Made by a program: the position numbers and the translations under genes. A stretch of DNA of 64,000 nucleotides from contig JAZDMV010000002.1 of NCBI GenBank assembly GCA_043800535.1, positions 11,378 to 75,377 of the forward strand, written 5' to 3'. The notes under the pieces are model-generated. The model was not told the DNA's origin, did no database searches, and saw only the letters and a list, made by a program, of their open reading frames with translations. How positions within the stretch are numbered: position 1 is the stretch's first letter; every line of letters starts with the position of its first letter. The stretch comes from a bacterium (GTDB lineage Bacteria > Patescibacteriota > Minisyncoccia > Portnoybacterales > GWB1-42-6). This document shows, one piece after another, positions 3,488-39,603 of the stretch.

Positions 3488-4495
3488 TTATATTTTATAA
3501 CTCTTCACCTCCACCCTCTCCCACGGTCCCCATTCCCCTTTTTTTAAAAGGCCGGTTTTGGCGCCAAGATTCTGGACGGTTCCGGTCGCGTTGGCTGTAC
3601 CTAGCTGCACAGCGTATTCAATTGCTGAAGAATCTTTTTTCCAGTCGCCTCTCTGCAAAAGTCCGCTCAAAAATCCCGAGCCAAAAGCGTCGCCAGAACC
3701 AGTTCTGTCAACCAGGCCCGATCTTGGTATGCCGGCAGTATAAATATTACGGCCATCAGACACCATTACCCCTTCATGTCCCTTGCTCATAACCGCCACA
3801 CCCTTTATCCAAACGTCCAGGCGCTTAAAAATTTCTTTTTCCGAGTTGTATGGCAAACAGGTTAATTTCGCCGCTTCTTCTTTGTTTAGAATAAAAACGT
3901 CTATTTTATTTAATAGCGGCTCAAGCCGGTCAATGCCAAGATTCAACTGCGCCTCTCCAGGATTAACCGCGATTTTTATTCCATTTTCATAAGCAAAATT
4001 AATTAACGGTTCAAAAAGCTCTGCTGATTTTCCAGAAAGGCCTGAGATATAGAACCATTTAGTTTTTTTGAGTTCGGCCCACGAAATTTCTTCTTTTGTT
4101 AAATTATGGCAAGCTCCTTGATACACCAAGATCGTTCGTTCACCCCCCGGCACCGAAAGCACAATTGAATAAGCAGTTTTTGATCTTTTGTCTTTTGTTA
4201 CAAACCCGCTGTTCACGCCAAATTTTTTAAGCTCCTCCAGAATTGCGTTTCCGCCAGTGTCATCCCCGACTTTTCCGACATAAGCGGTCTTTAGGCCCTG
4301 CAAAACGAAAGTGACGGCGGCATTTGTTCCTCCGCCGCCCGTCTCAAAAACTACGTCTTCAACATAAATTTTTGAGCCGGAAGGCGCGCAGACCCCTTTG
4401 CCAGTCGCAAAATCATCAGACCTTATTGTCTTAAAATTTTTGCTTATGACGAACATGTCCCGCGTGGCGGAGCCGAATGTGATGATGTCGAACAT
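3488..4495 (-). CDS. PfkB-family carbohydrate kinase (ribokinase-like)
   Basis: 335 aa. GG dipeptide region (ETGGGGTNAAV) and C-terminal DRTGSGDAFGSGF anion-hole motif typical of ribokinase/PfkB. Confidence 0.75.
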   Translation of the reverse strand: MFDIITFGSATRDMFVISKNFKTIRSDDFATGKGVCAPSGSKIYVEDVVFETGGGGTNAAVTFVLQGLKTAYVGKVGDDTGGNAILEELKKFGVNSGFVTKDKRSKTAYSIVLSVPGGERTILVYQGACHNLTKEEISWAELKKTKWFYISGLSGKSAELFEPLINFAYENGIKIAVNPGEAQLNLGIDRLEPLLNKIDVFILNKEEAAKLTCLPYNSEKEIFKRLDVWIKGVAVMSKGHEGVMVSDGRNIYTAGIPRSGLVDRTGSGDAFGSGFLSGLLQRGDWKKDSSAIEYAVQLGTANATGTVQNLGAKTGLLKKGEWGPWERVEVKSYKI

Positions 4496-4498
4496 AAT

Positions 4499-4942
4499 TT
4501 ACCTAATTATTTTTAAAATATATTTATCAACAATTTCTCCGCTGCAAGCATAAAAGAAAACAATGTCTACAACCCCTTCCTTTTTCGGTGTAATAATAGT
4601 GTAATTATTTTTATGGCATATACTCGATCTTTTATCTACAAAACTAATATCATAATAATCGCTTGTTTTGGCACCAACAGGACACCCCCCGGGTGCACCA
4701 TCTTCTGGAACACAAATATCTTCTTCGTCAGTTCTTACAATAATACTCTCGCCAATTTTAACTGTCATATTATTTTCAATCCTCTGAAGCTTTATATCGG
4801 TTAATCTAAAATAAATTTTCAAACCAAAAAAACCAATAATTAAAGCTATAATTATTACAAATAATGCTTTAAGTTTTTTACTTCTCCAAAAGCTTGTTTT
4901 TTGTGGATTATTTGGTTGGGGCGTTTCCATGGTTTTTGTCAT
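4499..4942 (-). CDS. hypothetical membrane-anchored protein
   Basis: Single N-terminal TM helix (LKALFVIIIALIIGFFGLKIYF). The ORF-track start at 4990 reads through a repeat element, so I place the start at MTKTMETPQ (4942). Confidence 0.45.
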   Translation of the reverse strand: MTKTMETPQPNNPQKTSFWRSKKLKALFVIIIALIIGFFGLKIYFRLTDIKLQRIENNMTVKIGESIIVRTDEEDICVPEDGAPGGCPVGAKTSDYYDISFVDKRSSICHKNNYTIITPKKEGVVDIVFFYACSGEIVDKYILKIIR

Positions 4943-5037
4943 TCCTGCCCGCGCTACGCCGAAAGGCTTCGGCGAGGCGAACAAAAGCAAAAATTCAGAT
5001 TGTTTTTCTTCTGGATTCCGGCTTTCGCCGGAATGAT
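4938..5037. repeat. palindromic repeat family B copy (gtcattcc...ccggaatga termini)
   Basis: Termini gtcattcctgcc ... ggattccggctttcgccggaatga resemble copies at 19321, 22861, 26531 and 13294. Confidence 0.5.
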
Positions 5038-5046
5038 ACCAAAAAG

Positions 5047-7350
5047 CTACAAAGCGCCTAGTATTTTCTTCTTCAATCCTTCCACATCAAATTCAGCGAA
5101 TTTATATACTTCATCCACCGCGCCGGATTTAAGGAAGCGGTCGATCCCGATAACCCGTTTCTGATAATCGCCGGGCAGAATGAAAGGGTTCAAAAACGCC
5201 GGCCAGCCATTGTGCAGAGTTATGACATACTGACGCTCTTCGTCTGGCAAAATTGAATCGGCTTTGGCCGGATCGTTCTTTTTCAGCTCTTCAAAAAGCT
5301 CGGGTGAAGTGACCGCGATAATTTTTATATCCGCATTCTGCTCCAATTCAGGCAAACTTGCCAAAACATTAGCCATCACTTGCCCGCCGCAGATGGCAAA
5401 AATAACTTTTTTCTTGCCGTTTTCCGCGAATGGCTTGTAAACATAAGCGCCATTTATTGCCTCTTTAGCAGGAGGCACTCCGTTTTCGCGTTTTAAAACC
5501 GGCGTTCCCGGCCGCATGATAGATAACGCGATCGGCTCCTGTTTTTCCATCGCATAAAACAGCATCTCAATTGTTTCATTGGCATCCATGGGTTTATAAA
5601 CTTTTATTCCCGGATAAGCGTTAAACAGCGACATCCAGAATAGCCCATGATGCGTTTCGCCGTCCTCGCCCGTTTCCGGGCCGTCGTGAGCCGCCAGCAT
5701 AATAAAAAATCCTTTACGCTTTGGGTTGACGTAATTATTGATCAACGCCATGCGCACCGAATTGGCCATAATTGAGGTAAACACGCCATATGACGCAAAG
5801 ACGCTCATTGCCTGATATCCGCCCGGCAGAATATCCTGGGTCAAACTGCTTCCCATCATAGCCATATTCTGCTCGGCAATGCCGTAGCGGAAACCGCGGC
5901 CCAAAGGATTGCTCGGACTGATAATCCCATAAACATTCTCCGCATTTTTGGTCAAAATAGAACCAGCCAGATCGCCGGAACCAACGTAGAAAAACGCTGA
6001 CTGCTTCATCATCCATTCAAAAAATGCTTCAGTCGCTTTTCTTGTGGCGATTGCTTCGCCTTCCTTGAAAACCAGTTCCGGCGGCAAAACATCCGGCCGC
6101 TTAATAGATTTATAATCAGCCATCGGCCGGTCTTTTAACACTTCCGCCATTTTTCCAGATAGCTCTTTTTCCGGCCTAATCCTTTCTTTATCAACGTTCA
6201 GGCGGTCAAATATATATTCAACATCCTCTTGAGTCAATTGAGAGATCACAACATCAATGTCTTTTTGCGTATCGCCCTCAATTCCGGGAATATCAAAGCC
6301 GATCGCTTTCATTATTTCAACGTAATCCGGATGTGCGACAGGCGCGCCGTGCGAGCCGGCCGTGCCGGCCAGCTTGCCGTAAAACTTCCCTTTGATAGTA
6401 TGGCAAATAATAACTGTGGCTTTTTTATTTCCAAACCCCTGATAGGCCTTATGATAAGCATAAGCGATCTCAAGAGGGTTATGGCCGTCAATTTCAATAA
6501 TGTTCCAGCCCGGGCCAAACCAATAATTATCAATGGGCAAGCTTATGACTTCGCCAATCGGCCCGTCTATGCCAAAATTATTATTATCAAGAGTAACGAT
6601 AATATTATCGGCGCCCATTGAAATAATGGAATTGCGCGCCTCATAACTTATTCCCTCTTCGGTTTCCGCGTCGCCCGCGATAACGTGCACTTTTGCGTCC
6701 AGCCCGTTTGATTTTTGCAAAATTGCCAAGCCAAGCCCGACAGAAAAACCATGCCCCGAAGAACCGGTTGAAGCGTCAGCCAAAGCATAACTTGATTCAA
6801 CATGGCCACTCGGGCCGTCGCAATGCCTGAAACGAGTCAGGCAAGAAGGCGTTGAATAGCCAAGCGCGTCTTTATCCAGCTTCACGCCTTTGCGCGACAT
6901 TACCTCCCAAATGAGCGCAAGCAAAGAATGTTGCAATGGCGTGCAATGCCCGGCGGACCAGACAATGCGGTCCCGGCCGGGATTTTTTGGGTCCTGCGGG
7001 TCAAAGGCAAAAATGCCGGAAAACAGCAAGCTTAATAAGATCTCAGTCTTTGAAGAAGATCCTCCCGGATGGCCAGATTTAATTCCATCCATCGCGGCAA
7101 AACTTAAACCGCGCACAACTCGCGCGATGTTTTCTATTCTAACGATATCAACTCCATCAATAGGTGCCAATTCAAGTCCTTTTAGATTTAAATAAACCCC
7201 CACACCTTCTTCTGCTTGATTATTTTTTTGGCTAGTTTCGGAACTCGCTAAGGTGTGGGGGTAAAAACCGCCTTCGGCCTGATACTGAAAGCGCTGCGGC
7301 TCCTTCTCCTTAAGCATGCCTAATTCCTTCTCATCGAGAATATTGTACAT
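5047..7350 (-). CDS. tkt: transketolase (full length, with about 80-aa N-terminal extension)
   Basis: Contains GHPGGSSS and EGISYEA segments, which I recall as transketolase TPP-binding signatures. The N-terminal extension includes an in-frame palindrome (7197-7261). Confidence 0.8.
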   Translation of the reverse strand: MYNILDEKELGMLKEKEPQRFQYQAEGGFYPHTLASSETSQKNNQAEEGVGVYLNLKGLELAPIDGVDIVRIENIARVVRGLSFAAMDGIKSGHPGGSSSKTEILLSLLFSGIFAFDPQDPKNPGRDRIVWSAGHCTPLQHSLLALIWEVMSRKGVKLDKDALGYSTPSCLTRFRHCDGPSGHVESSYALADASTGSSGHGFSVGLGLAILQKSNGLDAKVHVIAGDAETEEGISYEARNSIISMGADNIIVTLDNNNFGIDGPIGEVISLPIDNYWFGPGWNIIEIDGHNPLEIAYAYHKAYQGFGNKKATVIICHTIKGKFYGKLAGTAGSHGAPVAHPDYVEIMKAIGFDIPGIEGDTQKDIDVVISQLTQEDVEYIFDRLNVDKERIRPEKELSGKMAEVLKDRPMADYKSIKRPDVLPPELVFKEGEAIATRKATEAFFEWMMKQSAFFYVGSGDLAGSILTKNAENVYGIISPSNPLGRGFRYGIAEQNMAMMGSSLTQDILPGGYQAMSVFASYGVFTSIMANSVRMALINNYVNPKRKGFFIMLAAHDGPETGEDGETHHGLFWMSLFNAYPGIKVYKPMDANETIEMLFYAMEKQEPIALSIMRPGTPVLKRENGVPPAKEAINGAYVYKPFAENGKKKVIFAICGGQVMANVLASLPELEQNADIKIIAVTSPELFEELKKNDPAKADSILPDEERQYVITLHNGWPAFLNPFILPGDYQKRVIGIDRFLKSGAVDEVYKFAEFDVEGLKKKILGAL
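7197..7261. repeat. palindrome cccccacacctt...aaggtgtggggg lying in-frame in the tkt N-terminal extension
   Basis: 12-nt perfect inverted termini. The same cccccacac motif recurs at 50693-50760. Confidence 0.5.
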
Positions 7351-15218: not shown

Positions 15219-15342
15219 TTTAAAATTTAGTTTCGAGAAAATCGCCATCCAAAAATTTTGTTTTAAATTCAGGCCGAGGCGAGCGTAAAATTTGCGTGTT
15301 TATGCCTTTGGGCCCCGCAGCAGCGGGGTGCATAGCAAATTT

Positions 15343-15425
15343 AGTGAGACGAGGCCTAGAATTTATCAAAATTTTATGGCTGGCGAGAGCTTTTTGGCTA
15401 CTTTTTGTCGACACAAAAAGTAGCT
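15343..15425 (+). repeat. repeat family D copy 3 (partial) with hairpin gctactttttgtcgacacaaaaagtagc
   Basis: Matches the tail of copies 1 and 2. Confidence 0.55.
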
Positions 15426-15448
15426 TAATAAATAATGAAATTTACTCA

Positions 15449-15541
15449 CTTACACCCCGTAAATCCCGCTACGCGGGACACGGCGTAAAGCCGCGAGGCG
15501 GCCACGCCGCTTTTCGCGGGGCAGGCGTCCACTATATAATA
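15449..15541 (+). mobile_element. about 95-bp GC-rich element inserted at the dnaE start codon; the 18-nt start segment is directly repeated on both sides
   Basis: atgaaatttactcacttacac at 15427 and atgcctaaatttactcacttacac at 15542 flank the insert. The first copy encodes MKFTHLH then hits a stop. The element shares cccgtaaatcc and gcgtaa.gc.cga blocks with 40196-40300. Confidence 0.5.
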
Positions 15542-18500
15542 ATGCCTAAATTTACTCACTTACACGTTCATAGTCATTACAGTCTTCTTGACGGTCTGCC
15601 AAAGATCGACGAGCTTATTGACCATGCGCTGGCGCAGGGAATGGATTCACTTGCCTTAACAGACCACGGCTCGCTTTACGGCGCAGTTGAATTTTACAAA
15701 AAAGCCAAAGCCAAAGGGCTAAAACCGATTATCGGCTCAGAAATGTATATTGCGCCGGGCGGCATGCTTAACAAGCGATCTAGAATTGACGACAAACGCC
15801 ATCATCTTGTCGTTCTGGTTAAAGACAAAACCGGTTATGAAAATCTCGTTAAACTTACAACCAAGGCATGGCTTGAGGGATTTTATTATAAACCGCGCAT
15901 AGACAAAGAGCTCCTGCGCCGGCATTCAGGGGGTCTGGCCGCCCTTTCTGCCTGCATAGTCGGCGAAATACCTTCGGCTATCAGAAATGGTGACCCCAAA
16001 AAAGCGGAGGCGCTGGCCGAAGAATACCAGGATATTTTTGGCAAAGGAAATTTTTTCCTGGAAATAGAACATCATCCTGGAATTAAAGAACAGGAACAGG
16101 TCAATCAGGAAATCATAAAAATCGGCAAAAAATTAAAAATTCCTATTGTCGCTACCAACGACGTACATTATTTAAAGCCCGAAGACGCCGAAGCCCAGGA
16201 TATCTTGATGGCGGTCAACACCAACGCCGCGCTTGATGCGGGCGAACGCCTCTCCATGCGTTCGGACGACTTTTCACTTAAATCGCCCCAGGAAATGGCT
16301 GATTGGTTTCCGGCCACACCCGAAGCGATTGAAAACACCCAAAAAGTAACTGGTCTGTGCAATTTTGATTTTACGCTCGGCAAAATCCAGCTGCCTGAAT
16401 TTAAAGTGCCATCCGGCAAGTCCGATTTTGAATTTTTAAAAGAACTTGCCTATTCCGGCATCAGCCGGCGCTACAAACAAACTTCCAAAGAAATCCTTGA
16501 TCGTCTGGAATATGAACTTGGCGTCATCAAGCAGACCGGTTTTGCTTCTTATTTTTTGATCGTCCAGGATTTCGTCAACTGGGCAAAGGAGAATGGTATT
16601 GTTGTCGGGCCAGGCCGCGGCTCAGCTGCGGGGTCACTGGTCGCCTATCTTTTAAACGTCACCGACATTGATCCCTTAAAATACGACCTCCTGTTTGAGC
16701 GGTTTTTGAATCCCGAAAGAATTTCTATGCCTGATATTGATATGGATTTTTCCGATATCAGGCGAGGCGAAGTGATAGATTACGTACGAAAGAAATATGG
16801 AGACGACCATGTGGCGCAGATCATTACTTTTGGGACAATGGCTGCCCGCGCCGCTATCCGGGATTCGGGCCGCGCCATGGGTTATTCCTACAACTTGTGT
16901 GACCAGGTGGCAAAAACCGTGCCCTTTGTTGTCGGCCAAACGCTCGAGCGCGCGCTGCATGAATCAATTGAGCTACACCAATTATATGATTCCGACGAAC
17001 AGGTTAAAAAATTAGTTGATACGGCCATGAAGCTTGAGGGCGTGGCGCGCCATGCTTCAACCCACGCCGCCGGCGTCGTCATCACAAAGGAGCCGCTTGA
17101 AAAAACCGTGGCACTCCAGCATCCAACGCAGGACGACGCCACAATTGTTTCTCAATTTGAAATGCACGCAATTGAGGATTTGGGCCTTTTGAAAATGGAC
17201 TTTTTGGGGTTGAAAACCCTGACGCAGATCGAAAACGCCATTAATATCGTCAAAAAAACCAAAGGAGAAACAATTGATTTGCCCAACCTGCCGCTAGATG
17301 ACAAAGAAACATTTAAGCTCCTGCAGGAAGGCAAGGCCACGGGAGTTTTCCAGCTGGAATCAGGCGGAATGAAAAGAGTTCTGCGCGAACTTAAGCCGAC
17401 CGAATTTGAAGACATAATTGCTATAGTTGCGCTCTATCGCCCTGGTCCAATGGACCTTATCCCGGAATTTATTGCCCGCAAACACGGCCTTAAAAAAATT
17501 GAATACCTGCATCCTTTACTTGAAAAAATCCTCAAAAAAACCTACGGTATCTGTGTATATCAGGAACAATTGATGGAAATTGCAAAAGAACTGGCCGGTT
17601 TTTCACTCGGCGAGGCGGATGTTTTAAGAAAAGCTGTCGGCAAAAAAATCAAAAAACTGCTGGATGAACAGCGCGAAAAAATGATCCAGGGAATGACGCG
17701 CGGCGGCATTGACACAAAAACCGCCGAAAAGATCTGGGAATGGATTGAACCATTCGCCCGCTACGGCTTTAATAAATCGCATGCCACCTGCTATGCATTA
17801 ATCGGCTATCAAACCGCCTATTTGAAGGCTCGTTATCCGACAGAATTCATGGTTGCCATCATGAATTCTGACGAAGACGACATTGAACGCATCGCCTTTT
17901 TGGTCAATGAATGCAATGCAATGAAAATAGAGGTCCTGCCACCCGATATTAATGAAAGTTTGGAAAGTTTTACTGTTGTCAAAGACGGAATAATCCGTTT
18001 CGGGCTGGCTGCGATAAAAAACGTCGGGCAAAATGTCGTTGAGGCGATCGTGCGAGAACGCAAGGCCAATGACCCCTATGCTTCAATCTCGGACTTTGTC
18101 GAAAGAGTGCGAGACAAAGATCTGAATAAAAAATCCCTGGAAAGCTTGGTTAAATGCGGGGCCATGGATAAACTCGGCGAACGCGGCCAGCTGCTTTTCA
18201 ATATGGAACATATCCTCGATTTTTCACGCGAAATTTCCAAATCAAAAATCAACGGACAAAGCGGTTTATTTGACGCACTGGCGGCCGATTCAAAAATCAA
18301 CGGCCTGCCACCGCTAAAACTGCAACCCGCGCCTGAGGCCGGCAAAAAAGAAAAGTTATCATGGGAGAAAGAACTACTTGGTCTTTATGTTTCAGAACAT
18401 CCCGTCAAAGAGTATCAGGCCTATATAGATAAAACAGCGCTCACCTGCTCGAAAGTTTCTTCGCAATTTGTCGGCAAGAAATTGGCCGTTGGCGGAATTA

Positions 18501-18745
18501 TTTCTAAAATACATAAAATAATCACTAAAACTGGCAAGCCGATGCTTTTTGTCACGCTTGAAGACACAAAAGCAAAAATTGAAGTTTTGGTTTTTCCGCG
18601 AACTCTTGAACAAACCGCCACTGTCTGGCAGGAAGACAAACCAATCATCGTGACCGGCCGGATTGACGATAAGGAAGGAAATATAAAGCTGCTGTGCGAG
18701 GAAGTGCGGGAATTAAACCAAAATCATCTAAAAAACCAATACTGA
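15542..18745 (+). CDS. dnaE: DNA polymerase III alpha subunit
   Basis: MPKFTHLHVHSHYSLLDG PHP domain, then polymerase core and OB fold. The ORF-track start at 15296 is a read-through of the inserted element. Confidence 0.9.
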   Translation: MPKFTHLHVHSHYSLLDGLPKIDELIDHALAQGMDSLALTDHGSLYGAVEFYKKAKAKGLKPIIGSEMYIAPGGMLNKRSRIDDKRHHLVVLVKDKTGYENLVKLTTKAWLEGFYYKPRIDKELLRRHSGGLAALSACIVGEIPSAIRNGDPKKAEALAEEYQDIFGKGNFFLEIEHHPGIKEQEQVNQEIIKIGKKLKIPIVATNDVHYLKPEDAEAQDILMAVNTNAALDAGERLSMRSDDFSLKSPQEMADWFPATPEAIENTQKVTGLCNFDFTLGKIQLPEFKVPSGKSDFEFLKELAYSGISRRYKQTSKEILDRLEYELGVIKQTGFASYFLIVQDFVNWAKENGIVVGPGRGSAAGSLVAYLLNVTDIDPLKYDLLFERFLNPERISMPDIDMDFSDIRRGEVIDYVRKKYGDDHVAQIITFGTMAARAAIRDSGRAMGYSYNLCDQVAKTVPFVVGQTLERALHESIELHQLYDSDEQVKKLVDTAMKLEGVARHASTHAAGVVITKEPLEKTVALQHPTQDDATIVSQFEMHAIEDLGLLKMDFLGLKTLTQIENAINIVKKTKGETIDLPNLPLDDKETFKLLQEGKATGVFQLESGGMKRVLRELKPTEFEDIIAIVALYRPGPMDLIPEFIARKHGLKKIEYLHPLLEKILKKTYGICVYQEQLMEIAKELAGFSLGEADVLRKAVGKKIKKLLDEQREKMIQGMTRGGIDTKTAEKIWEWIEPFARYGFNKSHATCYALIGYQTAYLKARYPTEFMVAIMNSDEDDIERIAFLVNECNAMKIEVLPPDINESLESFTVVKDGIIRFGLAAIKNVGQNVVEAIVRERKANDPYASISDFVERVRDKDLNKKSLESLVKCGAMDKLGERGQLLFNMEHILDFSREISKSKINGQSGLFDALAADSKINGLPPLKLQPAPEAGKKEKLSWEKELLGLYVSEHPVKEYQAYIDKTALTCSKVSSQFVGKKLAVGGIISKIHKIITKTGKPMLFVTLEDTKAKIEVLVFPRTLEQTATVWQEDKPIIVTGRIDDKEGNIKLLCEEVRELNQNHLKNQY

Positions 18746-18940
18746 AACTCATTATTGACAACTGCCCGGGAAACCGATATTCTTATATTACAAGAGCAAT
18801 GACACGGCCTCACCAACCCTTCGACAGGCTCAGGGCAAGCCGCCCAAAAGCATGTCAGACATTGTTCTCGCAGGATACCGGCGAAATAGGCGCCAAAAGT
18901 GGTCCCGCGTAGCGGGGCAACTTGGGTGGAACCACGGGTA

Positions 18941-21671: not shown

Positions 21672-22850
21672 ATGAAATATTACATAATTACATATGGCTG
21701 TCAAATGAATGAAAGCGATTCTGAAAAGATCGTTGTTTTATTGCAGCGCCAGGGCCACAGACCCGCAAAATCAGAAGCTGACGCCAATTTGATCGTTCTT
21801 AACGCCTGTTCTGTGCGTCAGGCCGCCATGCATCGCGTCTACAGTAAAATAAATCAATATTCGGGTAAAAAGAAGGTAATTCTAGCCGGCTGCGTTTTGC
21901 AAAAAGACAAAAACGCGTTAAAGGAAAAAGTCAGCGAAATTTGGCATCCGGACAGCTATTTTGAATGCCCCTCAGTGTCATTGCGAAGCGCGCCGCCAGC
22001 TGGCGGCGCGCTGAAGCAATCCCGCACTAATACCTCCGTCCACGGGATTGCCACGCTCCCTCCGGTCGCTCGCAATGACGCGACGCCCGCCTATGTGCCC
22101 ATAATGACCGGCTGCAACAATTTTTGTTCTTATTGCGCCGTGCCTTACACGAGAGGACGGGAAAGATCACGGCCGGCGGACGAAATTATTGCCGAAGTAA
22201 AGGCGCTGGTAAAAAAAGGCCATAAAGAAATAATGCTGTTGGGACAAAACGTGAATTCGTATAAATCAAACAGCGTGTCATTGCGAGGAGCCACGTCTCC
22301 TGCGGGGCGACGCGGCGATCCCGACCGTTTACCGCCGTCCACGGGATTGCTTCGCTCCGCTCGCAATGACGTTAATTTTGCAGTTTTACTCAAAATCATC
22401 AACTCCCTCCCCGGCAATTTCCGTCTATCCTTTATGACCTCCCACCCCAAAGACATGTCGGACAAGCTTATTGCAACGATGGCCAAATGTGAAAAATTGG
22501 CAAAAAATCTGCACCTGCCAATTCAATCCGGCGACAATACAATTTTGCGCAAGATGAACCGACATTACACCACAAATCATTATCTGATACTGCTCAAAAA
22601 AATCCGCAAAGCGATTCCTGATATAAAAATTTCAACCGACATAATCGTCGGCTTCCCGGGCGAAACAAAAAAACAATTCCAAAGCACTGTCGCGCTGGCC
22701 AAAAAAGCCAAGTTTTCGGGCGCGTTTGTTGCCAAATATTCCCCGCGCCCCGGCACCGCCGCCGCCAAACTGAAAGACAATGTACCAGTTGAAGAAAAAA
22801 AACGACGTTGGCGGATTTTAGACACGTTGATTAATAAATTCGAGCATTAA
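21672..22850 (+). CDS. miaB: MiaB/RimO-family radical-SAM methylthiotransferase with two in-frame repeat-derived insertions
   Basis: MKYYIITYGCQMNESDSEKI MTTase N-domain, CNNFCSYCAVPYTRG radical-SAM cluster, TRAM end. Inserts SVSLRSAPPAGG... and SVSLRGATSPAGRRGD... are encoded by elements at 21975-22080 and 22275-22370. Confidence 0.8.
   Translation: MKYYIITYGCQMNESDSEKIVVLLQRQGHRPAKSEADANLIVLNACSVRQAAMHRVYSKINQYSGKKKVILAGCVLQKDKNALKEKVSEIWHPDSYFECPSVSLRSAPPAGGALKQSRTNTSVHGIATLPPVARNDATPAYVPIMTGCNNFCSYCAVPYTRGRERSRPADEIIAEVKALVKKGHKEIMLLGQNVNSYKSNSVSLRGATSPAGRRGDPDRLPPSTGLLRSARNDVNFAVLLKIINSLPGNFRLSFMTSHPKDMSDKLIATMAKCEKLAKNLHLPIQSGDNTILRKMNRHYTTNHYLILLKKIRKAIPDIKISTDIIVGFPGETKKQFQSTVALAKKAKFSGAFVAKYSPRPGTAAAKLKDNVPVEEKKRRWRILDTLINKFEH
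21975..22080. repeat. palindromic element family A copy 1, in-frame inside miaB (gtgtcattgcga...ctcgcaatgacg)
   Basis: Terminal inverted repeats. Shares ccgtccacgggattgc with copy 2. Confidence 0.7.
22275..22370. repeat. palindromic element family A copy 2, in-frame inside miaB
   Basis: gtgtcattgcgaggag ... gctcgcaatgacg. Confidence 0.7.
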
Positions 22851-22860
22851 CTAAAGTTTC

Positions 22861-22956
22861 TGTCATTCCGAGCGTGCGAGGAATCTCCCGCGTATGCGGG
22901 ACCCCGTTGCCGACATTCATCGGAAATCCTTCGGCGTAACGCGCCTCAGGATGACG
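22861..22956. repeat. palindromic repeat family B copy downstream of miaB
   Basis: tgtcattccgagcgtgcgaggaatctcccgcgtatgcggg ... caggatgacg. Confidence 0.55.
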
Positions 22957-22975
22957 CTTTATGGAAAATAAAAAA

Positions 22976-22993
22976 GGACCGATTTCTCGGTCC
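22976..22993 (-). terminator. hairpin ggaccgatttctcggtcc after the 23025-23309 gene
   Basis: Perfect 6-bp stem with U-run on the minus strand. Confidence 0.4.
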
Positions 22994-23024
22994 CGAAAAG
23001 GTGAAAGAAAAGAGTACAATGATT

Positions 23025-23309
23025 TTACCCTTTGTCGGCGCGGGTATGAAACGTCAATACCATGGCGGTTTCAATGTCGTACCCAAGTGGTTTAATGACT
23101 TTAACCACGTTCATTATTTCCGGCACAAAATTGCTGATAACCCGCAGAAAAGGCATCTCTTCGCCCTTGAGGTTTTTTGCCTCGTCGTGATAAACGGTGA
23201 CGACGATGTCTTCAAGGCACTTTAACCCCGATGATAAAAGGCAATCTGCGACGATCTTTTTGACAACCTCCGAACCCTCCCCATATCCATGAAGCTCAAT
23301 ATTAGGCAT
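23025..23309 (-). CDS. hypothetical protein
   Basis: 94-aa ORF. Confidence 0.4.
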   Translation of the reverse strand: MPNIELHGYGEGSEVVKKIVADCLLSSGLKCLEDIVVTVYHDEAKNLKGEEMPFLRVISNFVPEIMNVVKVIKPLGYDIETAMVLTFHTRADKG

Positions 23310-23353: not shown

Positions 23354-24337
23354 ATGCTAGATAATAATTGTCAAGATAAAGATGCTCCAAAGCTAATCGT
23401 CGTTCTCGGCCCGACTGCTTCCGGCAAGTCGGATTTAGCTGTGGAAATCGCCCACAAATTCAATGGCGAGATTATTTCCGCTGATTCGCGGCAGGTTTAT
23501 CGCGGAATGGATATTGGGACCGGCAAAATTACAAAAAAAGAGATGCAAGGTGTTCCTCATTATCTGCTGGATGTCGCTGACCCAAAACGCCGCTTTACTG
23601 TCGCCCAATACAAAAAATTAGCGCTGGCCGCAATAAAAAAGATACAACGCAAAAATAAAATCCCGATTATCTGCGGCGGGACGGGGTTTTATATTCAGGC
23701 GCTAGTTGATAATATTTCTATCCCAGAAGTCAAGCCGGATTTGAAACTTCGCACGCGCCTGGAAAAAAAATCTGTCGGAGAACTATTCTCCGAGCTGAAG
23801 TGGCTTGACCCAAAACGCGCCAAAACAATAGACCCCAAAAATCCCCGCCGACTCATCCGCGCGCTTGAAATTATTTATAAAACCGGCAAACCTGTGCCGC
23901 CGTTAAATCCTCCCCGCCCCTCCCTAAAGGGAGGGAGTCCCCCTCCTTTAGGAGGGGCTAGGGGAGATTTTTCTACCCTCTTCATCGGCGTCAAAAAATC
24001 GCCGCATCAACTACGGCGATTGATTTATAAACGCCTGCTCAAACGATTGCGGCAAGGCATGATAGAAGAAGTCAAAAACTTGCGTAAATCTGGCATCTCC
24101 TGGAAACGGCTGGAAGACTTTGGCCTGGAATATCGATACACCGCTAAATATTTACAGAAAAAAACCCTTCGACAAGCTCAGGGTAAATTATACTATCAAG
24201 AAATGGTTTCGCGTCTCCAAAAAGAAATTGAGCATTACGCCAAAAGGCAGATGACGTGGTTCAAAAAAAATCCAAGAATAAAATGGATAGAAAGCGAAAC
24301 TCAAGCGCAAAAATTAGTAAAAAAATTCATAGAATAA
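23354..24337 (+). CDS. miaA: tRNA dimethylallyltransferase with in-frame palindromic insert
   Basis: IVVLGPTASGKSDLAVEIA P-loop; SADSRQVYRGMDIGTGK. Insert PPRPSLKGGSPPPLGGARGD is encoded by cccctccctaaagggaggg/ccccctcctttaggagggg (about 23910-23975). Confidence 0.8.
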   Translation: MLDNNCQDKDAPKLIVVLGPTASGKSDLAVEIAHKFNGEIISADSRQVYRGMDIGTGKITKKEMQGVPHYLLDVADPKRRFTVAQYKKLALAAIKKIQRKNKIPIICGGTGFYIQALVDNISIPEVKPDLKLRTRLEKKSVGELFSELKWLDPKRAKTIDPKNPRRLIRALEIIYKTGKPVPPLNPPRPSLKGGSPPPLGGARGDFSTLFIGVKKSPHQLRRLIYKRLLKRLRQGMIEEVKNLRKSGISWKRLEDFGLEYRYTAKYLQKKTLRQAQGKLYYQEMVSRLQKEIEHYAKRQMTWFKKNPRIKWIESETQAQKLVKKFIE

Positions 24338-25676: not shown

Positions 25677-27224
25677 CTATTTCAACCGCTTCTTCAAGAT
25701 TTCCTCAACCATCTGCGGATTGGCGCGGCCTTTGGTCGCCGCCATCACTTTGCCGATCAAAAACATCAGCGCTTTTTCTTTGCCGCCTTTAAACTCGGCC
25801 GCGGGCCCCGGGTTTTGAGAAATAGTTTCAGCCACCGCTTTTTCAAGTTCTTCCTCATCACTCACCTGCGCTATCCCCTTTTCTTCTATGACGTGCGACG
25901 GGTCAACACCTGTTTTAAACATTTCGGCTAAGACCGTCTGCGCGCCGCTTGAAGAAACAACGCCCTGCGCGGTCAGCTTTATAAATTCCGCAAAATTCTC
26001 GGCCGTAATTTTTAAATTTTCAAACGGCTGGCCTGATTGGGCAAGCAATTTCTGCAATTCCGTTATCAGATAATTTGCCGCCAGTTTCAGCGCTTTGACG
26101 CAGTCAATTTTTGGCTCGGCCGAGCATGCCCATTCTTTCAGTTCACTCGCCACCCGCTCAAAATAATCGCCCAGCGCTTTATTAACAACGAAAATTTCAA
26201 CGTCGCCATCTGGCAAATTATATTCTTCAACAAATCTTTTTTTACGACTAGCCGGCATTTCGGGCAAAGATGATAGTTCGGCAACAATCTCCGCAGTTTT
26301 TAATGGCGGCAAATCCGGCTCAGGAAAATAGCGATAATCATGCGCTTCTTCTTTGACTCGCTGGGAAACTGTCATCTGTTTTTCGTCAACCCATCCGCGC
26401 GTCTCCTGAATAATTTTTTCACCGGCTTCCAGGGCTTCGGCCTGCCGTTTTATTTCATAATCAATGCCCCGCTCAACCGCCCGGAAAGAATTCAAATTTT
26501 TTATTTCCACTTTAGTCCCTAAAGGCGCTCCGTCATTCTGAGGCAAAACCGAAGAATCTCCCAGCTTGTTTGGGATGAATCCCGCATTCGCGGGTGATTC
26601 CTCGCTACGCTCGGAATGACTTGTGGACGGTCGTAGACTAATATTCACCTCACACCTCATCTGGCCCTTTTCCATATCAGCGTCAGAAACCCCAAGATAC
26701 CTTAAAATAAGCTGAAGTTCCTGGCAGAATTTTTTGGCCTCTATGCCCGAACGTATATCCGGCTCTGTCACCAATTCCATCAGCGGCACGCCTGCGCGGT
26801 TCAAGTCAACCAAAGAATAATCAGTCCCTGCCGGATGCAACAATTTGCCCGTATCTTCTTCCAGATGTATTCTGCGAATTTTTATTTTACAGCCGTCAAT
26901 TTCCAGCCACCCGTTCTGCGAAAGCGGCTTGTCATACTGGCTTATCTGATAGCCCTTGGGCAAGTCTGGATAAAAATAGTTTTTGCGGTCAAATTTGGAA
27001 AATTCCGGAATTTCGCAGTTGAGCGCCCGCGCGGTCTGCAAGACCATTTTCACCGCTTCTTTGTTTGTCACGGGCAAACTGCCCGGCTGGCCTGTGCAGA
27101 CGGGGCAAATGTGGATATTGGGTTCGCCTTCCAAACCAAAACCATTCTCACATCCACAAAACATTTTTGTTTTGGTCTTAAGCTCAACATGAACCTCCAT
27201 TCCGATAACCGCTTCATATTTCAT
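25677..27224 (-). CDS. gatB: Asp/Glu-tRNA amidotransferase subunit B with in-frame repeat insert
   Basis: MKYEAVIGMEVHVELKT N-terminus. Insert RPSTSHSERSEESPANAGFIPNKLGDSSVLPQNDGAPL is encoded by the family B element at 26531-26630. Confidence 0.85.
   Translation of the reverse strand: MKYEAVIGMEVHVELKTKTKMFCGCENGFGLEGEPNIHICPVCTGQPGSLPVTNKEAVKMVLQTARALNCEIPEFSKFDRKNYFYPDLPKGYQISQYDKPLSQNGWLEIDGCKIKIRRIHLEEDTGKLLHPAGTDYSLVDLNRAGVPLMELVTEPDIRSGIEAKKFCQELQLILRYLGVSDADMEKGQMRCEVNISLRPSTSHSERSEESPANAGFIPNKLGDSSVLPQNDGAPLGTKVEIKNLNSFRAVERGIDYEIKRQAEALEAGEKIIQETRGWVDEKQMTVSQRVKEEAHDYRYFPEPDLPPLKTAEIVAELSSLPEMPASRKKRFVEEYNLPDGDVEIFVVNKALGDYFERVASELKEWACSAEPKIDCVKALKLAANYLITELQKLLAQSGQPFENLKITAENFAEFIKLTAQGVVSSSGAQTVLAEMFKTGVDPSHVIEEKGIAQVSDEEELEKAVAETISQNPGPAAEFKGGKEKALMFLIGKVMAATKGRANPQMVEEILKKRLK
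26531..26630. repeat. palindromic repeat family B copy, in-frame inside gatB (gtcattctgagg...ctcggaatgac)
   Basis: Terminal inverted repeats. Internal gaatcccgcattcgcgggtgattc hairpin. Confidence 0.65.
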
Positions 27225-27286
27225 AAAATCATAATAACACAATAATTCAACAGAAAAAAGAACCATCCATTGGATGGCTCTTTATA

Positions 27287-36329: not shown

Positions 36330-38459
36330 TTATCTTCTAATTCCCCACCCTTTCTCTTCCACTGCCTTAATAATACCCGTCATTAATTCGTTAACTTCTT
36401 TATCTGTTAAGTTCCGCTCGTCGGACTGAAATGTCAGACGGAAAGCAAAACTTTTTTTATTGTCAGCCACGCCTTCGTAAATATCAAAAAGGTCGGTATC
36501 TTGCAGAAGCTGCCCGCCGGCTGTTTCTATGACGTTCAGCACGCTTTCGGTCTTTGTGTCGTTATCTACCAGAACGGCCAGATCGCGCATGATGGCGGGA
36601 TATTTTGAAGGCGGCATATACATTCTTTCCTCCGAGGCGAGCCGCATTACTTTTGCAAAATCAAGCTCAAACGCAGCCACTTTTTCTTTTATTTCGCAGG
36701 ATGACAAAATATCTTGTTTAATTTCTCCGATCCAGCCGACTAATTCATCACCCGATTTAATTTCCGCCACGCGCGACTGATGCAAAAATTCCAGCCACCA
36801 CTGTTTTTGCGCGATGGCGTCATCAAACCATATATCGCCGATTCCCAATTTTGAAAATAAAATTTCGAGCCCGCCTTTGAGCTCCAGCAAGTTTTCTGTT
36901 GGCTTTGCGTTTTTATGACAGACAACCGCCCCGATCTTATTTTCCTCAAAACGCTCCCCTGCTTCTCTCCTGAAAACGTGGCCAATTTCAAAAAGCCGTA
37001 TATTATCAAAAAATTTAATATTTTCTCTTACGTTCTTCAAAAGATTCACAATTAAAGTCGGCCTCAAATATTTCTGGTCCTGTGAAAAAGGGTTTTTTAT
37101 TTCAATGTGGTTTGAAAAGTCAAATATTTTGCGGTCGCTTTCGGAAATAAACGAATAATTATAAACTTCATTCCAGCCGGCGCCAACCAAAATATCTTTT
37201 ATTTTATCTTCATAAATAAGTGACTCTTCGCGCAGGGCCGGGATTAAAATACCTCTTGGGGTATCAATCGGAATTTTGTCATAGCCGACGAGCCGTACCA
37301 CCTCTTCGGCTAGATCTTCCTGAGCCTGCAAGTCAAGCCGGCTTGTCGGGATTGAGGCTTCAATAAAGAGCTTACCGTCTTTTTTAATGATTTTGGATAA
37401 AATACCGAGTTCTTTTAATACTTCTGTCATCTTTTCGTCTTTAATATCTACACCCAGCAGCCCCTGCGCCCAGGCCACATCCATTAATACTTTTCGCAGT
37501 TTAGTTTTTTTCTCACACACATCAATCACTCCACTTGCGACTTTTCCCCCGGCAAATTCAACCATAAGAGACAAAGCACGCTCCAGCGCCTCAATTGTCA
37601 ATTCCGGATCAAGCCCGTTTTCAAAGCGCGTGGAAGCGTCTGTTTTTAAATTAAATGCTTTTCTTGTGCGGCGGATATTTGTCGGCTCAAAATTAGCGGA
37701 TTCAATTGCCACAATCTTTGTCTTTTCATCAATTTCCGGGCCTTCTCCTCCTTTTATGCCGGCGATGCCGATGGCGACTTTTTCATCCGCGATCACTAAA
37801 TTTTGCGGACTCAAATTGTATGATTTGCCTTCAAGCGTCGTAATTTTTTCGCCTTCATTTGCTCTGCGCACAATTATCTTTCCAACCGTGTCATTGCGAG
37901 GAGTCTGCGACGAAGTCTCCCTTTGGGAGATCTCCCGAAGGGAGACAATCCCGAGAACGGCTATGGCGCGAGGCGCCACCTTATCAACGTCAAAGGCATG
38001 CAGCGGCTGGCCGGTTTCCAGCATCACATAATTTGTGATATCAACAATATTTGAGATCGGCCGCAGACCGCATGCTTGCAGCCGCTCCTGGAACCACTTT
38101 GGCGACGGAGCAACCTTTATATCCGTTAAAACACGCATGCTGTAGCGCGGGCACAGGTCCGGCACCTGAACTTCAACCGAAATAAAATCTTTGGCTTTGA
38201 ATTTTTTGTCCTCGGACAGCTTCACTTTTGGGCCTATAAATCCGACACCTGAAATCGCGGCTAACTCCCTGGCAATTCCGATATGCGACATGCAATCATG
38301 CGCGCGGTTTGATAAAATCTTTATGTCCAGCACTGAATCCTGCCCGAATTTTTCGCAGCTTTCCACCTCAAACGCATGCATGGTCAAAAGCTCGACCATT
38401 TTTTCAGGCGCCAGAGATTTTTTTAGATATTCATTTAGCCAGTTGGCGGAAAATTTCAT
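36330..38459 (-). CDS. pheT: phenylalanine--tRNA ligase beta subunit with in-frame repeat insert
   Basis: 709 aa with B3/4, B5 and anticodon-binding regions. Insert VSLREISQRETSSQTPRNDT is encoded by the element at 37888-37975. Confidence 0.8.
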   Translation of the reverse strand: MKFSANWLNEYLKKSLAPEKMVELLTMHAFEVESCEKFGQDSVLDIKILSNRAHDCMSHIGIARELAAISGVGFIGPKVKLSEDKKFKAKDFISVEVQVPDLCPRYSMRVLTDIKVAPSPKWFQERLQACGLRPISNIVDITNYVMLETGQPLHAFDVDKVAPRAIAVLGIVSLREISQRETSSQTPRNDTVGKIIVRRANEGEKITTLEGKSYNLSPQNLVIADEKVAIGIAGIKGGEGPEIDEKTKIVAIESANFEPTNIRRTRKAFNLKTDASTRFENGLDPELTIEALERALSLMVEFAGGKVASGVIDVCEKKTKLRKVLMDVAWAQGLLGVDIKDEKMTEVLKELGILSKIIKKDGKLFIEASIPTSRLDLQAQEDLAEEVVRLVGYDKIPIDTPRGILIPALREESLIYEDKIKDILVGAGWNEVYNYSFISESDRKIFDFSNHIEIKNPFSQDQKYLRPTLIVNLLKNVRENIKFFDNIRLFEIGHVFRREAGERFEENKIGAVVCHKNAKPTENLLELKGGLEILFSKLGIGDIWFDDAIAQKQWWLEFLHQSRVAEIKSGDELVGWIGEIKQDILSSCEIKEKVAAFELDFAKVMRLASEERMYMPPSKYPAIMRDLAVLVDNDTKTESVLNVIETAGGQLLQDTDLFDIYEGVADNKKSFAFRLTFQSDERNLTDKEVNELMTGIIKAVEEKGWGIRR
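37888..37975. repeat. palindromic element family A copy 3 (partial), in-frame inside pheT
   Basis: gtgtcattgcgaggagtctgcgacgaagtctccctttgggagatctcccgaagggagacaatcc. Confidence 0.6.
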
Positions 38460-39465: not shown

Positions 39466-39477
39466 GCCAGATACTTT

Positions 39478-39603
39478 ATCATTGCGAGCAAAGCGAAACA
39501 ATCCCGTAGTTTTTGCTACATGCCACGGAATTGTCTCCCTTCGGGGGATCTCTCGAAGGGAGACCGCGTCGCCCCGATTAAGTCGGGACTCCTCGCAATG
39601 ACG
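39478..39603. repeat. palindromic element family A copy 4 (tcattgcgagcaaagcg...ctcctcgcaatgacg) upstream of pheS
   Basis: Complete terminal inverted repeats. Internal ggagaccgcg/gtctccc hairpin shared with copy 3. Confidence 0.65.

Follow-up and report, generated by a model that had tools for sequence, protein, structure and literature searches.

In-frame palindromic repeats within a MiaB-like gene of a candidate phyla radiation bacterium

The 64-kb stretch of DNA analysed here (called the window), which comes from a metagenome-assembled genome (MAG), carries a gene for a MiaB-like radical-SAM methylthiotransferase, hereafter miaB, whose single open reading frame (ORF) includes two GC-rich palindromic segments. 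This raises the question of what these segments are and how they came to be part of a coding sequence. A preliminary description of the locus had likened them to the Rickettsia palindromic elements (RPEs), which lie in frame within genes. We favour, with a probability of roughly 80%, the view that they are selfish palindromic repeats, screened by selection for open frames, that have become lodged in frame in the miaB-like gene.

Two palindromic insertions in the miaB-like gene

The gene and the elements within it are located as follows:
21672..22850, plus strand: MiaB-like radical-SAM methylthiotransferase gene, single ORF, 392 aa
21976..22080, plus strand: element copy 1 (subfamily alpha), 105 nt = 35 codons, reads (V)SLRSAPPAGGALKQSRTNTSVHGIATLPPVARND
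21987..22012, unstranded: perfect hairpin (13+13 nt) within the left arm of copy 1, AGCGCGCCGCCAG/CTGGCGGCGCGCT
22016..22051, unstranded: inner stem of copy 1, GCAATCCCG / CGGGATTGC flanking an 18-nt spacer
22276..22371, plus strand: element copy 2 (subfamily beta), 96 nt = 32 codons, reads (V)SLRGATSPAGRRGDPDRLPPSTGLLRSARND

Both palindromes were found where they had been described, at 21976-22080 (105 nt) and 22276-22371 (96 nt). Copy 1 is bounded by gtGTCATTGCGAa...CTCGCAATGACg (21975-22080) and copy 2 by gtGTCATTGCGAG...CTCGCAATGACg (22275-22371), the termini common to both being (T)GTCATTGCGAG...CTCGCAATGAC(G). The outer arms are 100% complementary over 10 bp in copy 1 (21977-21986 / 22070-22079) and over 11 bp in copy 2 (22277-22287 / 22360-22370), and the copies have a G+C content of 66-67%, compared to 45% for the window. 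Both fold far better than shuffled sequences, as RNA (z = -6.7 for copy 1 and -4.8 for copy 2) and as DNA (z = -6.2 and -4.0). On its two strands together, the window has 5 exact occurrences of the 11-mer GTCATTGCGAG, versus 0.02 +/- 0.14 expected from dinucleotide shuffles, and the relaxed pattern GTCATTSYGAG occurs 8 times versus 0.10 expected. The repeated nature of the termini and the folding of the elements, both put forward as checks in the preliminary description, are thereby borne out.

Both segments are in frame within the single ORF, and the translations given for them earlier (...PSVSLRSAPPAGGALKQSRTNTSVHGIATLPPVARNDATP... and ...NSVSLRGATSPAGRRGDPDRLPPSTGLLRSARNDVN...) are correct. 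Only one of the three frames of copy 1 is free of stop codons and this is the frame in use; copy 2 is also read in a stop-free frame. The protein thus consists of a core of ~325 aa and of 67 element-encoded aa. Its Pfam domains are UPF0004 (residues 2-88) and Radical_SAM (residues 142-342), without a TRAM domain, and together with sequence motifs they place the two inserts at linker positions, as had been proposed. The insert of copy 1 (approximately residues 102-136) lies in the linker that connects the radical-SAM core to the N-terminal domain, before the CNNFCSYC motif, and that of copy 2 (approximately residues 201-233) in the loop after LLGQNVNSY. The Fe-S cysteines C46, C74, C148, C152 and C155 are invariant across the MiaB-like homologs. 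The closest solved structure is MiaB of Bacteroides uniformis (7mjz, E = 1.6e-72), with RimO far behind. The protein is identical to an NCBI MAG protein (P0001), and its relatives are named Candidatus Portnoybacteria (Parcubacteria, in the candidate phyla radiation, CPR).

That the segments are insertions was established by alignment with 29, and then with 120, MiaB-like sequences. At site 1 (from W.PD.YF to VPIM) the usual form has 12 aa, e.g. ECLPIHQSKFQA, and the window protein 43 aa; at site 2 (from QNVNSY to F..LL) the usual form has 6 aa, KDKNVN, and the window protein 38 aa. Proteins of 315-321 aa with neither of the inserts are found among the 120 homologs, and the segments are therefore insertions; the alternative that they are native linkers was rejected. 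A structure prediction by AlphaFold2 from the 120-sequence alignment gave a predicted local distance difference test score (pLDDT) below 50 at residues 101-135 and 205-230, which are the two inserts, and a confident core, with most blocks of 10 residues scoring 85-97. In canonical MiaB, site 1 corresponds to a native linker of ~35 aa and site 2 to a short loop (residues 222-230 of B. uniformis MiaB), and thus both sites tolerate changes in length.

As the window derives from a MAG and short repeats can confuse assemblers, the repeats might have been mis-joined into the gene during metagenome assembly or binning. Such an artefact would have had to occur exactly in frame, twice, in an otherwise intact gene. 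Moreover, equivalent in-frame elements are present on independently assembled contigs (L121-L124) from other samples and assemblers, and one element-bearing homolog (P0005) is found on 14 contigs from independent assemblies. We consider the probability of an artefact to be negligible.

Some further features of this MiaB-like lineage were observed. Canonical MiaB, RimO and MtaB carry a C-terminal TRAM domain (PF01938, RNA-binding), which is lacking in the window lineage and was detected in just 2 of the 120 listed homologs (P0024 and P0092). The linker between the N-terminal and radical-SAM domains has 12 aa in this lineage, compared to ~35 aa in B. uniformis MiaB. In the window miaA lies downstream of miaB, and in related contigs the miaB-like gene is flanked by thrS and miaA. 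L123 and L124 have a second radical-SAM gene (4155-5180) in the interval separating their miaB-like gene from miaA; the same interval of the window contains only a 94-aa ORF on the minus strand (23025-23309), which has no Pfam match.

Related copies in the window and in other bacteria

Seven or eight related copies are present in the 64-kb window, inside and between genes. Besides the two in miaB, the following were located:
13296 to ~13375: degenerate related copy
22861..22957, plus strand: intergenic related copy, 97 nt, TGTCATTCCGAG...CTCAGGATGACG, starting 11 nt past the miaB stop codon
26532..26620, minus strand: in-frame related copy in gatB, with GTCATTCYGAG termini, encoding ~30 residues, ...SHSERSEESPANAGFIPNKLGDSSVLPQND...
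37890..~37965, minus strand: in-frame partial copy in pheT, with one intact terminus and an internal hairpin, encoding ...AIAVLGIVSLREISQRETSSQTPRND...
39478..39602, unstranded: intergenic copy with a 125-nt core, ATCATTGCGAG...CTCGCAATGAC, directly upstream of the pheS start codon

The copy in gatB (ORF 25677-27266, minus strand; fold z = -4.6) splits the GatB_N domain, and GatB residues 217-247 form an insertion when compared with the Aquifex protein (3h0l_B). Similarly, residues 161-194 of PheT (ORF 36330-38459, minus strand) are extra relative to Thermus thermophilus PheT (1b70_B). Both complete intergenic copies fold better than shuffles (z = -2.4 for 22861-22957 and -4.9 for 39478-39602), and the domains of PheS begin after the downstream ATG. 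Located just past the miaB stop and just before the pheS start, these two copies could affect mRNA stability, termination or translation initiation.

The host ORF stays open across all four intragenic copies of the window (two in miaB, one each in gatB and pheT), and at the right terminus one of the three frames makes a TGA (CAA TGA C). The lengths of the miaB copies, 105 and 96 nt, are multiples of three, whereas those of the complete intergenic copies are not (97 nt for the first; 125 nt for the second, or 127 nt when one flanking base on each side is included, at 39477-39603). The open frames and the lengths of the miaB copies thus fit purifying selection on a translated sequence and argue against removal at the mRNA level.

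This bears on the idea that the segments are intervening sequences, which would be excised from the mRNA, bypassed or removed after translation and would therefore be missing from the mature protein. The hairpins are indeed very stable and sharply bounded, and CPR bacteria are known for intervening sequences in their rRNA genes. Removal would, however, free the segments from restrictions on length and stop codons, and yet every intragenic copy observed is open in the frame of its host and the miaB copies, in contrast to the intergenic ones, are multiples of three. In addition, Rfam 15 searched against the window at the gathering score gave three tRNAs only and no family for the element, and at E <= 10 over positions 21900-23000 it gave nothing meaningful, introns included in both cases. 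This explanation is thus very improbable. An intein was also considered and rejected, 32-35 aa being far too short.

The distribution of the element outside the window was obtained by scanning one genome per GTDB species with the pattern GTCATTGCGAG-N55-85-CTCGCAATGAC, which gave at least 120 stretches (L001-L120) containing 132 copies. Among the matches listed are many from Bradyrhizobium, sphingomonads and other Alpha- and Gammaproteobacteria, from Mucilaginibacter, Pedobacter and Flavobacterium (Bacteroidota), from Planctomycetota, Chloroflexota (Anaerolineae and Dehalococcoidia), Desulfobacterota, Ignavibacteriota, Zixibacteria and Margulisbacteria, from Rickettsiales (including Tisiphia) and from several Patescibacteria. 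Identical 11-nt termini together with the inner GAAGCAATCC motif are kept in at least 10 phyla, including cultured Bradyrhizobium, Mucilaginibacter and Pedobacter. The earlier suggestion that the segments are lineage-specific therefore holds for the insertions, which are absent from orthologs, but not for the element itself, which crosses phyla.

The 132 copies share one architecture, in which an outer arm, GTCATTGCGAG, is followed by a short variable segment or nested hairpin, by GAAGCAATCC(A/C), by a variable spacer and by the mirror image of these parts. The inner stem GAAGCAATCC/GGATTGCTTC recurs across many phyla, and in copy 1 its two halves form the inner ends of two units resembling repetitive extragenic palindromic (REP) sequences. 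The positions just inside GCAAT/ATTGC covary, 4.13 out of 5 being paired versus 3.03 +/- 0.08 with shuffled partners (maximum 3.35 in 1000 shuffles). The outer arm is preceded by C in 71% of the copies and by T in 23%, so that units begin with CGTC or TGTC, and it is followed by G or A. Copy lengths across this general population show no bias towards multiples of three (50:48:34).

The nested module differs in sequence between copies, a hairpin being present in 4 of the 5 other full-length copies compared. The position of the nested hairpin of copy 1 is occupied by different hairpins in L121, L122, L123 and L052, and L078 has no module; neither the site-2 copy of the window nor its half-copy relative in L122 has a clean nested hairpin. 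The three frames of the element presumably account for frequent spurious-ORF peptides such as LLRFARND, DCFASLAMT and VIARSEATKQS, and several of these strings were seen in translations of element copies. Intragenic calls based on ORFs in high-GC genomes were discarded as unreliable, long spurious ORFs being frequent there.

The same copies are informative with respect to a classical MITE (miniature transposable element with inverted repeats), that is, a deletion derivative of an insertion sequence (IS) that is bounded by terminal inverted repeats (TIRs) and moved by cut-and-paste through a transposase encoded elsewhere in the genome. The element has perfect TIRs of 10-11 bp (up to 13 bp), a length of ~80-125 bp and multiple copies, as expected of a MITE, and its half units form no convincing REP hairpins alone. 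However, no target-site duplication is apparent in the 132 copies; the conserved flanks (Y-C...G-R) are complementary and form no direct repeat, and thus extend the inverted repeat rather than represent a duplicated target. No pair of termini surrounds a transposase-sized segment in the 120 8-kb loci or in the window, in a search that covered termini pairs and not the ORFs between them, the sole distant pair in the loci lying 673 bp apart (L018). Near-identical termini over many phyla would also be unusual for IS-derived MITEs, and a published survey links no transposase to repeats with a CGTC tag (PMC3733652). A classical MITE is therefore an unlikely origin of the element.

Relation to known repeat systems

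Judged by its sequence features, the element best fits the CGTC-tagged REP superfamily, in the form of head-to-head dimers. According to Di Nocera, De Gregorio and Rocco (2013, BMC Genomics 14:522; PMC3733652), these repeats have an unpaired terminal CGTC, often TGTC (also CCTC), a stem starting with A-T and a 3-nt CCA tail, and they occur mostly as head-to-head dimers, whose units are 20-100 bp apart and which are able to form a single hairpin. They are found mainly in Alphaproteobacteria, including Bradyrhizobium, whose CGTC-1 repeats have atypical loops; no transposase is associated with them and intragenic copies are documented. The CGTC-1 and CGTC-4 repeats of Rickettsia conorii were equated with RPE-6 and RPE-4, and intragenic dimers of this species encode peptides such as SFLRKQES...DSRFRGND (PMC3733652, Additional file 3).

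The likenesses are several. The window copies have TGTC on the left and CGTC (as GACG) on the right, and the unit reads (C/T)GTC-ATTGC...GCAAT-CC, in which ATTGC and GCAAT pair in half-unit folds and the stem starts with A-T. GCAAT is most often followed by CCA(G); variants of CCA (CCAGA, CCAGC, CCAGT, CCAGG, CCATG, CCATC, CCATT and CCATA were counted) stand there in 58 of 109 copies, and CCC in the window copies. The miaB copies and the 132 others are inverted pairs of units around a variable spacer, probably joined by the end that the paper names the 'head'. The element has numerous copies in a genome, located mostly between genes, with some in genes for known proteins, and the search for termini pairs revealed no transposase linked to it, the survey likewise reporting none. 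It is present in Alphaproteobacteria (Bradyrhizobium and sphingomonads), Bacteroidetes and Rickettsia, and its dimers can be read in the frame S-x-x-R...R-x-N-D.

There are also differences. CGTC-1 to CGTC-4 have stems of 8-9 bp and loops of 4-5 nt, whereas the ATTGC/GCAAT stem found here has 5 bp and encloses a loop of at least 12 nt, which often bears a nested hairpin. Like TIRs, the two units pair with one another over their outermost 11 nt, and the five phyla listed in the survey omit Patescibacteria, Chloroflexota, Planctomycetota and Desulfobacterota (PMC3733652). The supplementary files of the paper contain no string matching the element, and this comparison thus revealed no identity with a named CGTC family.

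The RPEs (Ogata et al. 2000, 2002) are palindromic repeats of ~100-150 bp located in frame in unrelated housekeeping genes, according to later papers (PMC10969869, PMC3733652). As in these, the in-frame insertion adds a peptide compatible with the fold, sometimes twice in one gene. RPE-4 and RPE-6 have the same CGTC tag, and copies of the present family with exact termini occur in the Rickettsiales MAGs L026, L081 and L104. In contrast, each RPE family has a sequence definition of its own, in an alphaproteobacterium that is AT-rich and lives as an obligate intracellular organism, whereas the copies studied here form GC-rich islands within the genome of a CPR bacterium. The comparison covered the CGTC tag and frame usage, and sequence homology to any RPE family beyond the tag is not claimed. 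The likeness to RPEs noted in the preliminary description is thus supported for the tag, the start of the stem, the tail and the dimer layout, which are those of the CGTC superfamily including RPE-4 and RPE-6, but fails for the size of stem and loop, which is not that of CGTC-1 to CGTC-4. Because the SLRG...ARND frames equal those of the R. conorii dimers and the tag is shared, this likeness probably reflects membership of the element and the RPEs in the same broad superfamily.

REPINs, hairpin-forming doublets of REP sequences, are almost exclusively extragenic. They resemble the element in having two inverted REP units, a long hairpin and a replicating population of sequences (Bertels and Rainey). 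They differ from it in having a GTAG tag and a REP-associated tyrosine transposase (RAYT, a Y1 enzyme of the IS200/IS605-like type), whereas the tag is CGTC or TGTC here, and the survey knows of no RAYT association for the CGTC class (PMC3733652). Bacterial MITEs that form in-frame fusions, such as intragenic enterobacterial repetitive intergenic consensus (ERIC) sequences, Coxiella QMITE1 and others (review PMC10969869), are likewise short, non-autonomous and TIR-bounded, and add peptide segments within ORFs. In contrast to these, the present termini are kept across phyla, and neither a target-site duplication nor a parental IS was identified.

Repeated occupation of the two loops and origin of the inserts

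The DNA of three element-bearing MiaB homologs was compared with the window copies. Subfamily alpha occupies site 1 in the window and in L123, and in L121 and L122 it lies at site 2. The site-2 copy of the window, which represents subfamily beta, is similar to a half copy that L122 has at site 1, so that the sites of alpha and beta are swapped between the window genome and L122. Alignment of the site-1 copy of the window with the site-2 copy of L122 gives 90% identity (95% over the right 65 nt), compared to a nucleotide identity of 75% for the host gene cores, and therefore these copies do not represent one ancient, vertically inherited insertion.

Several unrelated types of insert are found at sites 1 and 2 among the 120 homologs, including SLRG..KQSR..ARND or ..LAMT, SSSPQTRGGLRWG..PPPTPSSTEEG, FPISNFQFPNKSQIS, EIRNPKFETNSKFK, TDYRLPTT..TVDG, PSLKGGS..GGAGGDF and others. 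In the MiaB family the left end is read in one and the same frame (S-L-R) in each of the eight dimer inserts. A scan of metagenomes for MiaB relatives gave mostly distant proteins (<= 51% identity) with few inserts. One of these, a distant MiaB of ~40% identity (L196, Ga0123353_10215786), carries a Bacteroidetes-type in-frame repeat at site 2 (..GADLQSVP..GTSYKLAPAK..RHELQTRAS..), which suggests that site 2 is permissive well outside the CPR.

The frequency of inserts at the same two loops raises the possibility that the peptides, which are basic or hydrophilic, have been recruited for the benefit of the host, e.g. for tRNA contact in a MiaB without TRAM, and kept by positive or purifying selection acting on them. 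The lack of TRAM in this lineage, the single left-end frame of all MiaB dimer inserts and the better conservation of the element copies compared to the host gene agree with such an exaptation. On the other hand, many close orthologs, likewise without TRAM, are free of inserts at one of the sites or at both, and inserts at one site come from unrelated families and encode unrelated peptides; because insert-free orthologs of this kind are frequent and the insert types unrelated, the case for exaptation is weak. Furthermore, the same element occurs between genes and in unrelated genes (gatB and pheT), the segments are predicted to be disordered, and conservation follows the DNA palindrome, as indicated by covariation of the arms, rather than a peptide motif. 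Exaptation thus appears quite improbable, even more so than a classical MITE.

We propose instead that each segment is a selfish repeat, namely a non-autonomous composite palindrome made of two inverted REP-like units, each with the tag (C/T)GTC followed by ATTGCGAG... and ...GAAGCAATCC. The units would be joined head-to-head round a short spacer, with small extra hairpins nested in the arms. Such repeats may be dispersed, both inside a genome and from one genome to another, by a trans-acting activity for which hairpin and tag serve as recognition features, probably in a manner dependent on hairpins or single-stranded DNA. Selection would purge insertions that break essential genes, and the survivors would be those in tolerant loops, with a length that is a multiple of three and a stop-free frame. 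The miaB survivors would be transcribed and translated as hydrophilic, disordered surface loops of 35 and 32 residues, leaving the Fe-S and radical-SAM core intact. The segments are most likely without function for the host, and neutral or nearly so.

Several points weigh against this proposal. Half units tested for folding against shuffles gave z values of about 0 in five out of six cases, and the exception, the left arm of copy 1 (z = -4.8), owes its value to the nested hairpin; as the half unit is thus not a canonical REP hairpin, it is the tag, the tail and the dimer layout that support the interpretation as a REP dimer, and a description as a TIR-bounded MITE would suit the element equally well. 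No pair of near-identical genomes with an empty and a filled site was found, and since the closest ortholog is 72% identical, the boundaries given for the insertions are approximate and a target-site duplication could have been missed. The high identity between copies could stem from sequence constraint or gene conversion rather than from recent transposition, random insertion followed by filtering does not obviously explain the single S-L-R frame, and that the miaB segments are translated is something we infer.

More tentatively, and with a likelihood only a little above that of a classical MITE, the MiaB loops may themselves be targets of insertion. In Portnoybacteria at least four to five unrelated families have colonised these few codons, each independently, and alpha and beta have exchanged sites between genomes, which could stem from selection for the only tolerated places or, in addition, from targeting or from insertion into, or recombination with, resident hairpins. 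In the latter case peptide cassettes in CPR housekeeping proteins would be under continual in-frame turnover and, given also the termini kept across phyla without a known transposase, a mobilisation machinery not yet described, encoded by the host or shared horizontally, would be indicated.

In-frame palindromic repeats as such are already known, as RPEs, intragenic GTAG and CGTC REPs, ERIC sequences and Coxiella MITEs. In the searchable literature, no report of in-frame or intragenic palindromic repeats in CPR/Patescibacteria was found, the RepRanger survey of REPs does not cover repeats of this group, and searches of the literature by sequence or peptide string (GTCATTGCGAG, LRFARND and similar) gave unrelated matches only. 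What is new is the CPR host group, the density in translation-related genes and the occupation of the same two loops by multiple families. The same class of element is present in at least three translation-related genes (miaB, gatB and pheT) within 64 kb. Such elements lengthen and distort CPR proteins, producing spurious low-complexity or disordered regions, gaps in alignments and false "lineage-specific domains", and their masking is advisable in phylogenomics and structure prediction. Loops reoccupied by different repeat families provide a natural map of insertion-tolerant sites in conserved enzymes and may also supply new peptide segments. The conservation of the termini across phyla without a known transposase raises the question of what mobilises CGTC-type repeats.

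Other GC-rich islands were noted in the window, whose G+C content of 45% made a census of such islands too noisy for a list of elements. A different GC-rich palindrome, unrelated to the element, is located in frame in miaA (ORF 23354-24337, plus strand) at 23905-23970 (CCTCCCCGCCCCTCCCTAAAGGGAGGG / CCCCTCCTTTAGGAGGGGCTAGGGGAG). It encodes ...NPPRPSLKGGSPPPLGGARGDF..., which is largely an insertion compared to the solved MiaA 3d3q_A, and the same type of peptide is found at MiaB site 1 in other Portnoybacteria (P0011 and P0013). MiaA contains a further extra segment of ~10 aa (..TLRQAQGKLYY..) near residues 270-285. The island at 15449-15541 (..CCCGCTACGCGGGAC..GCCGCGAGGCGGC..) lies within the first 85 codons of the ORF 15296-18745 (plus strand), which is probably dnaE by synteny with L124, and it may be upstream of the true start of this ORF. 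An intergenic island at 18794-18940 contains GAGCAATGACAC and a repeat of the ..RLRASR type.

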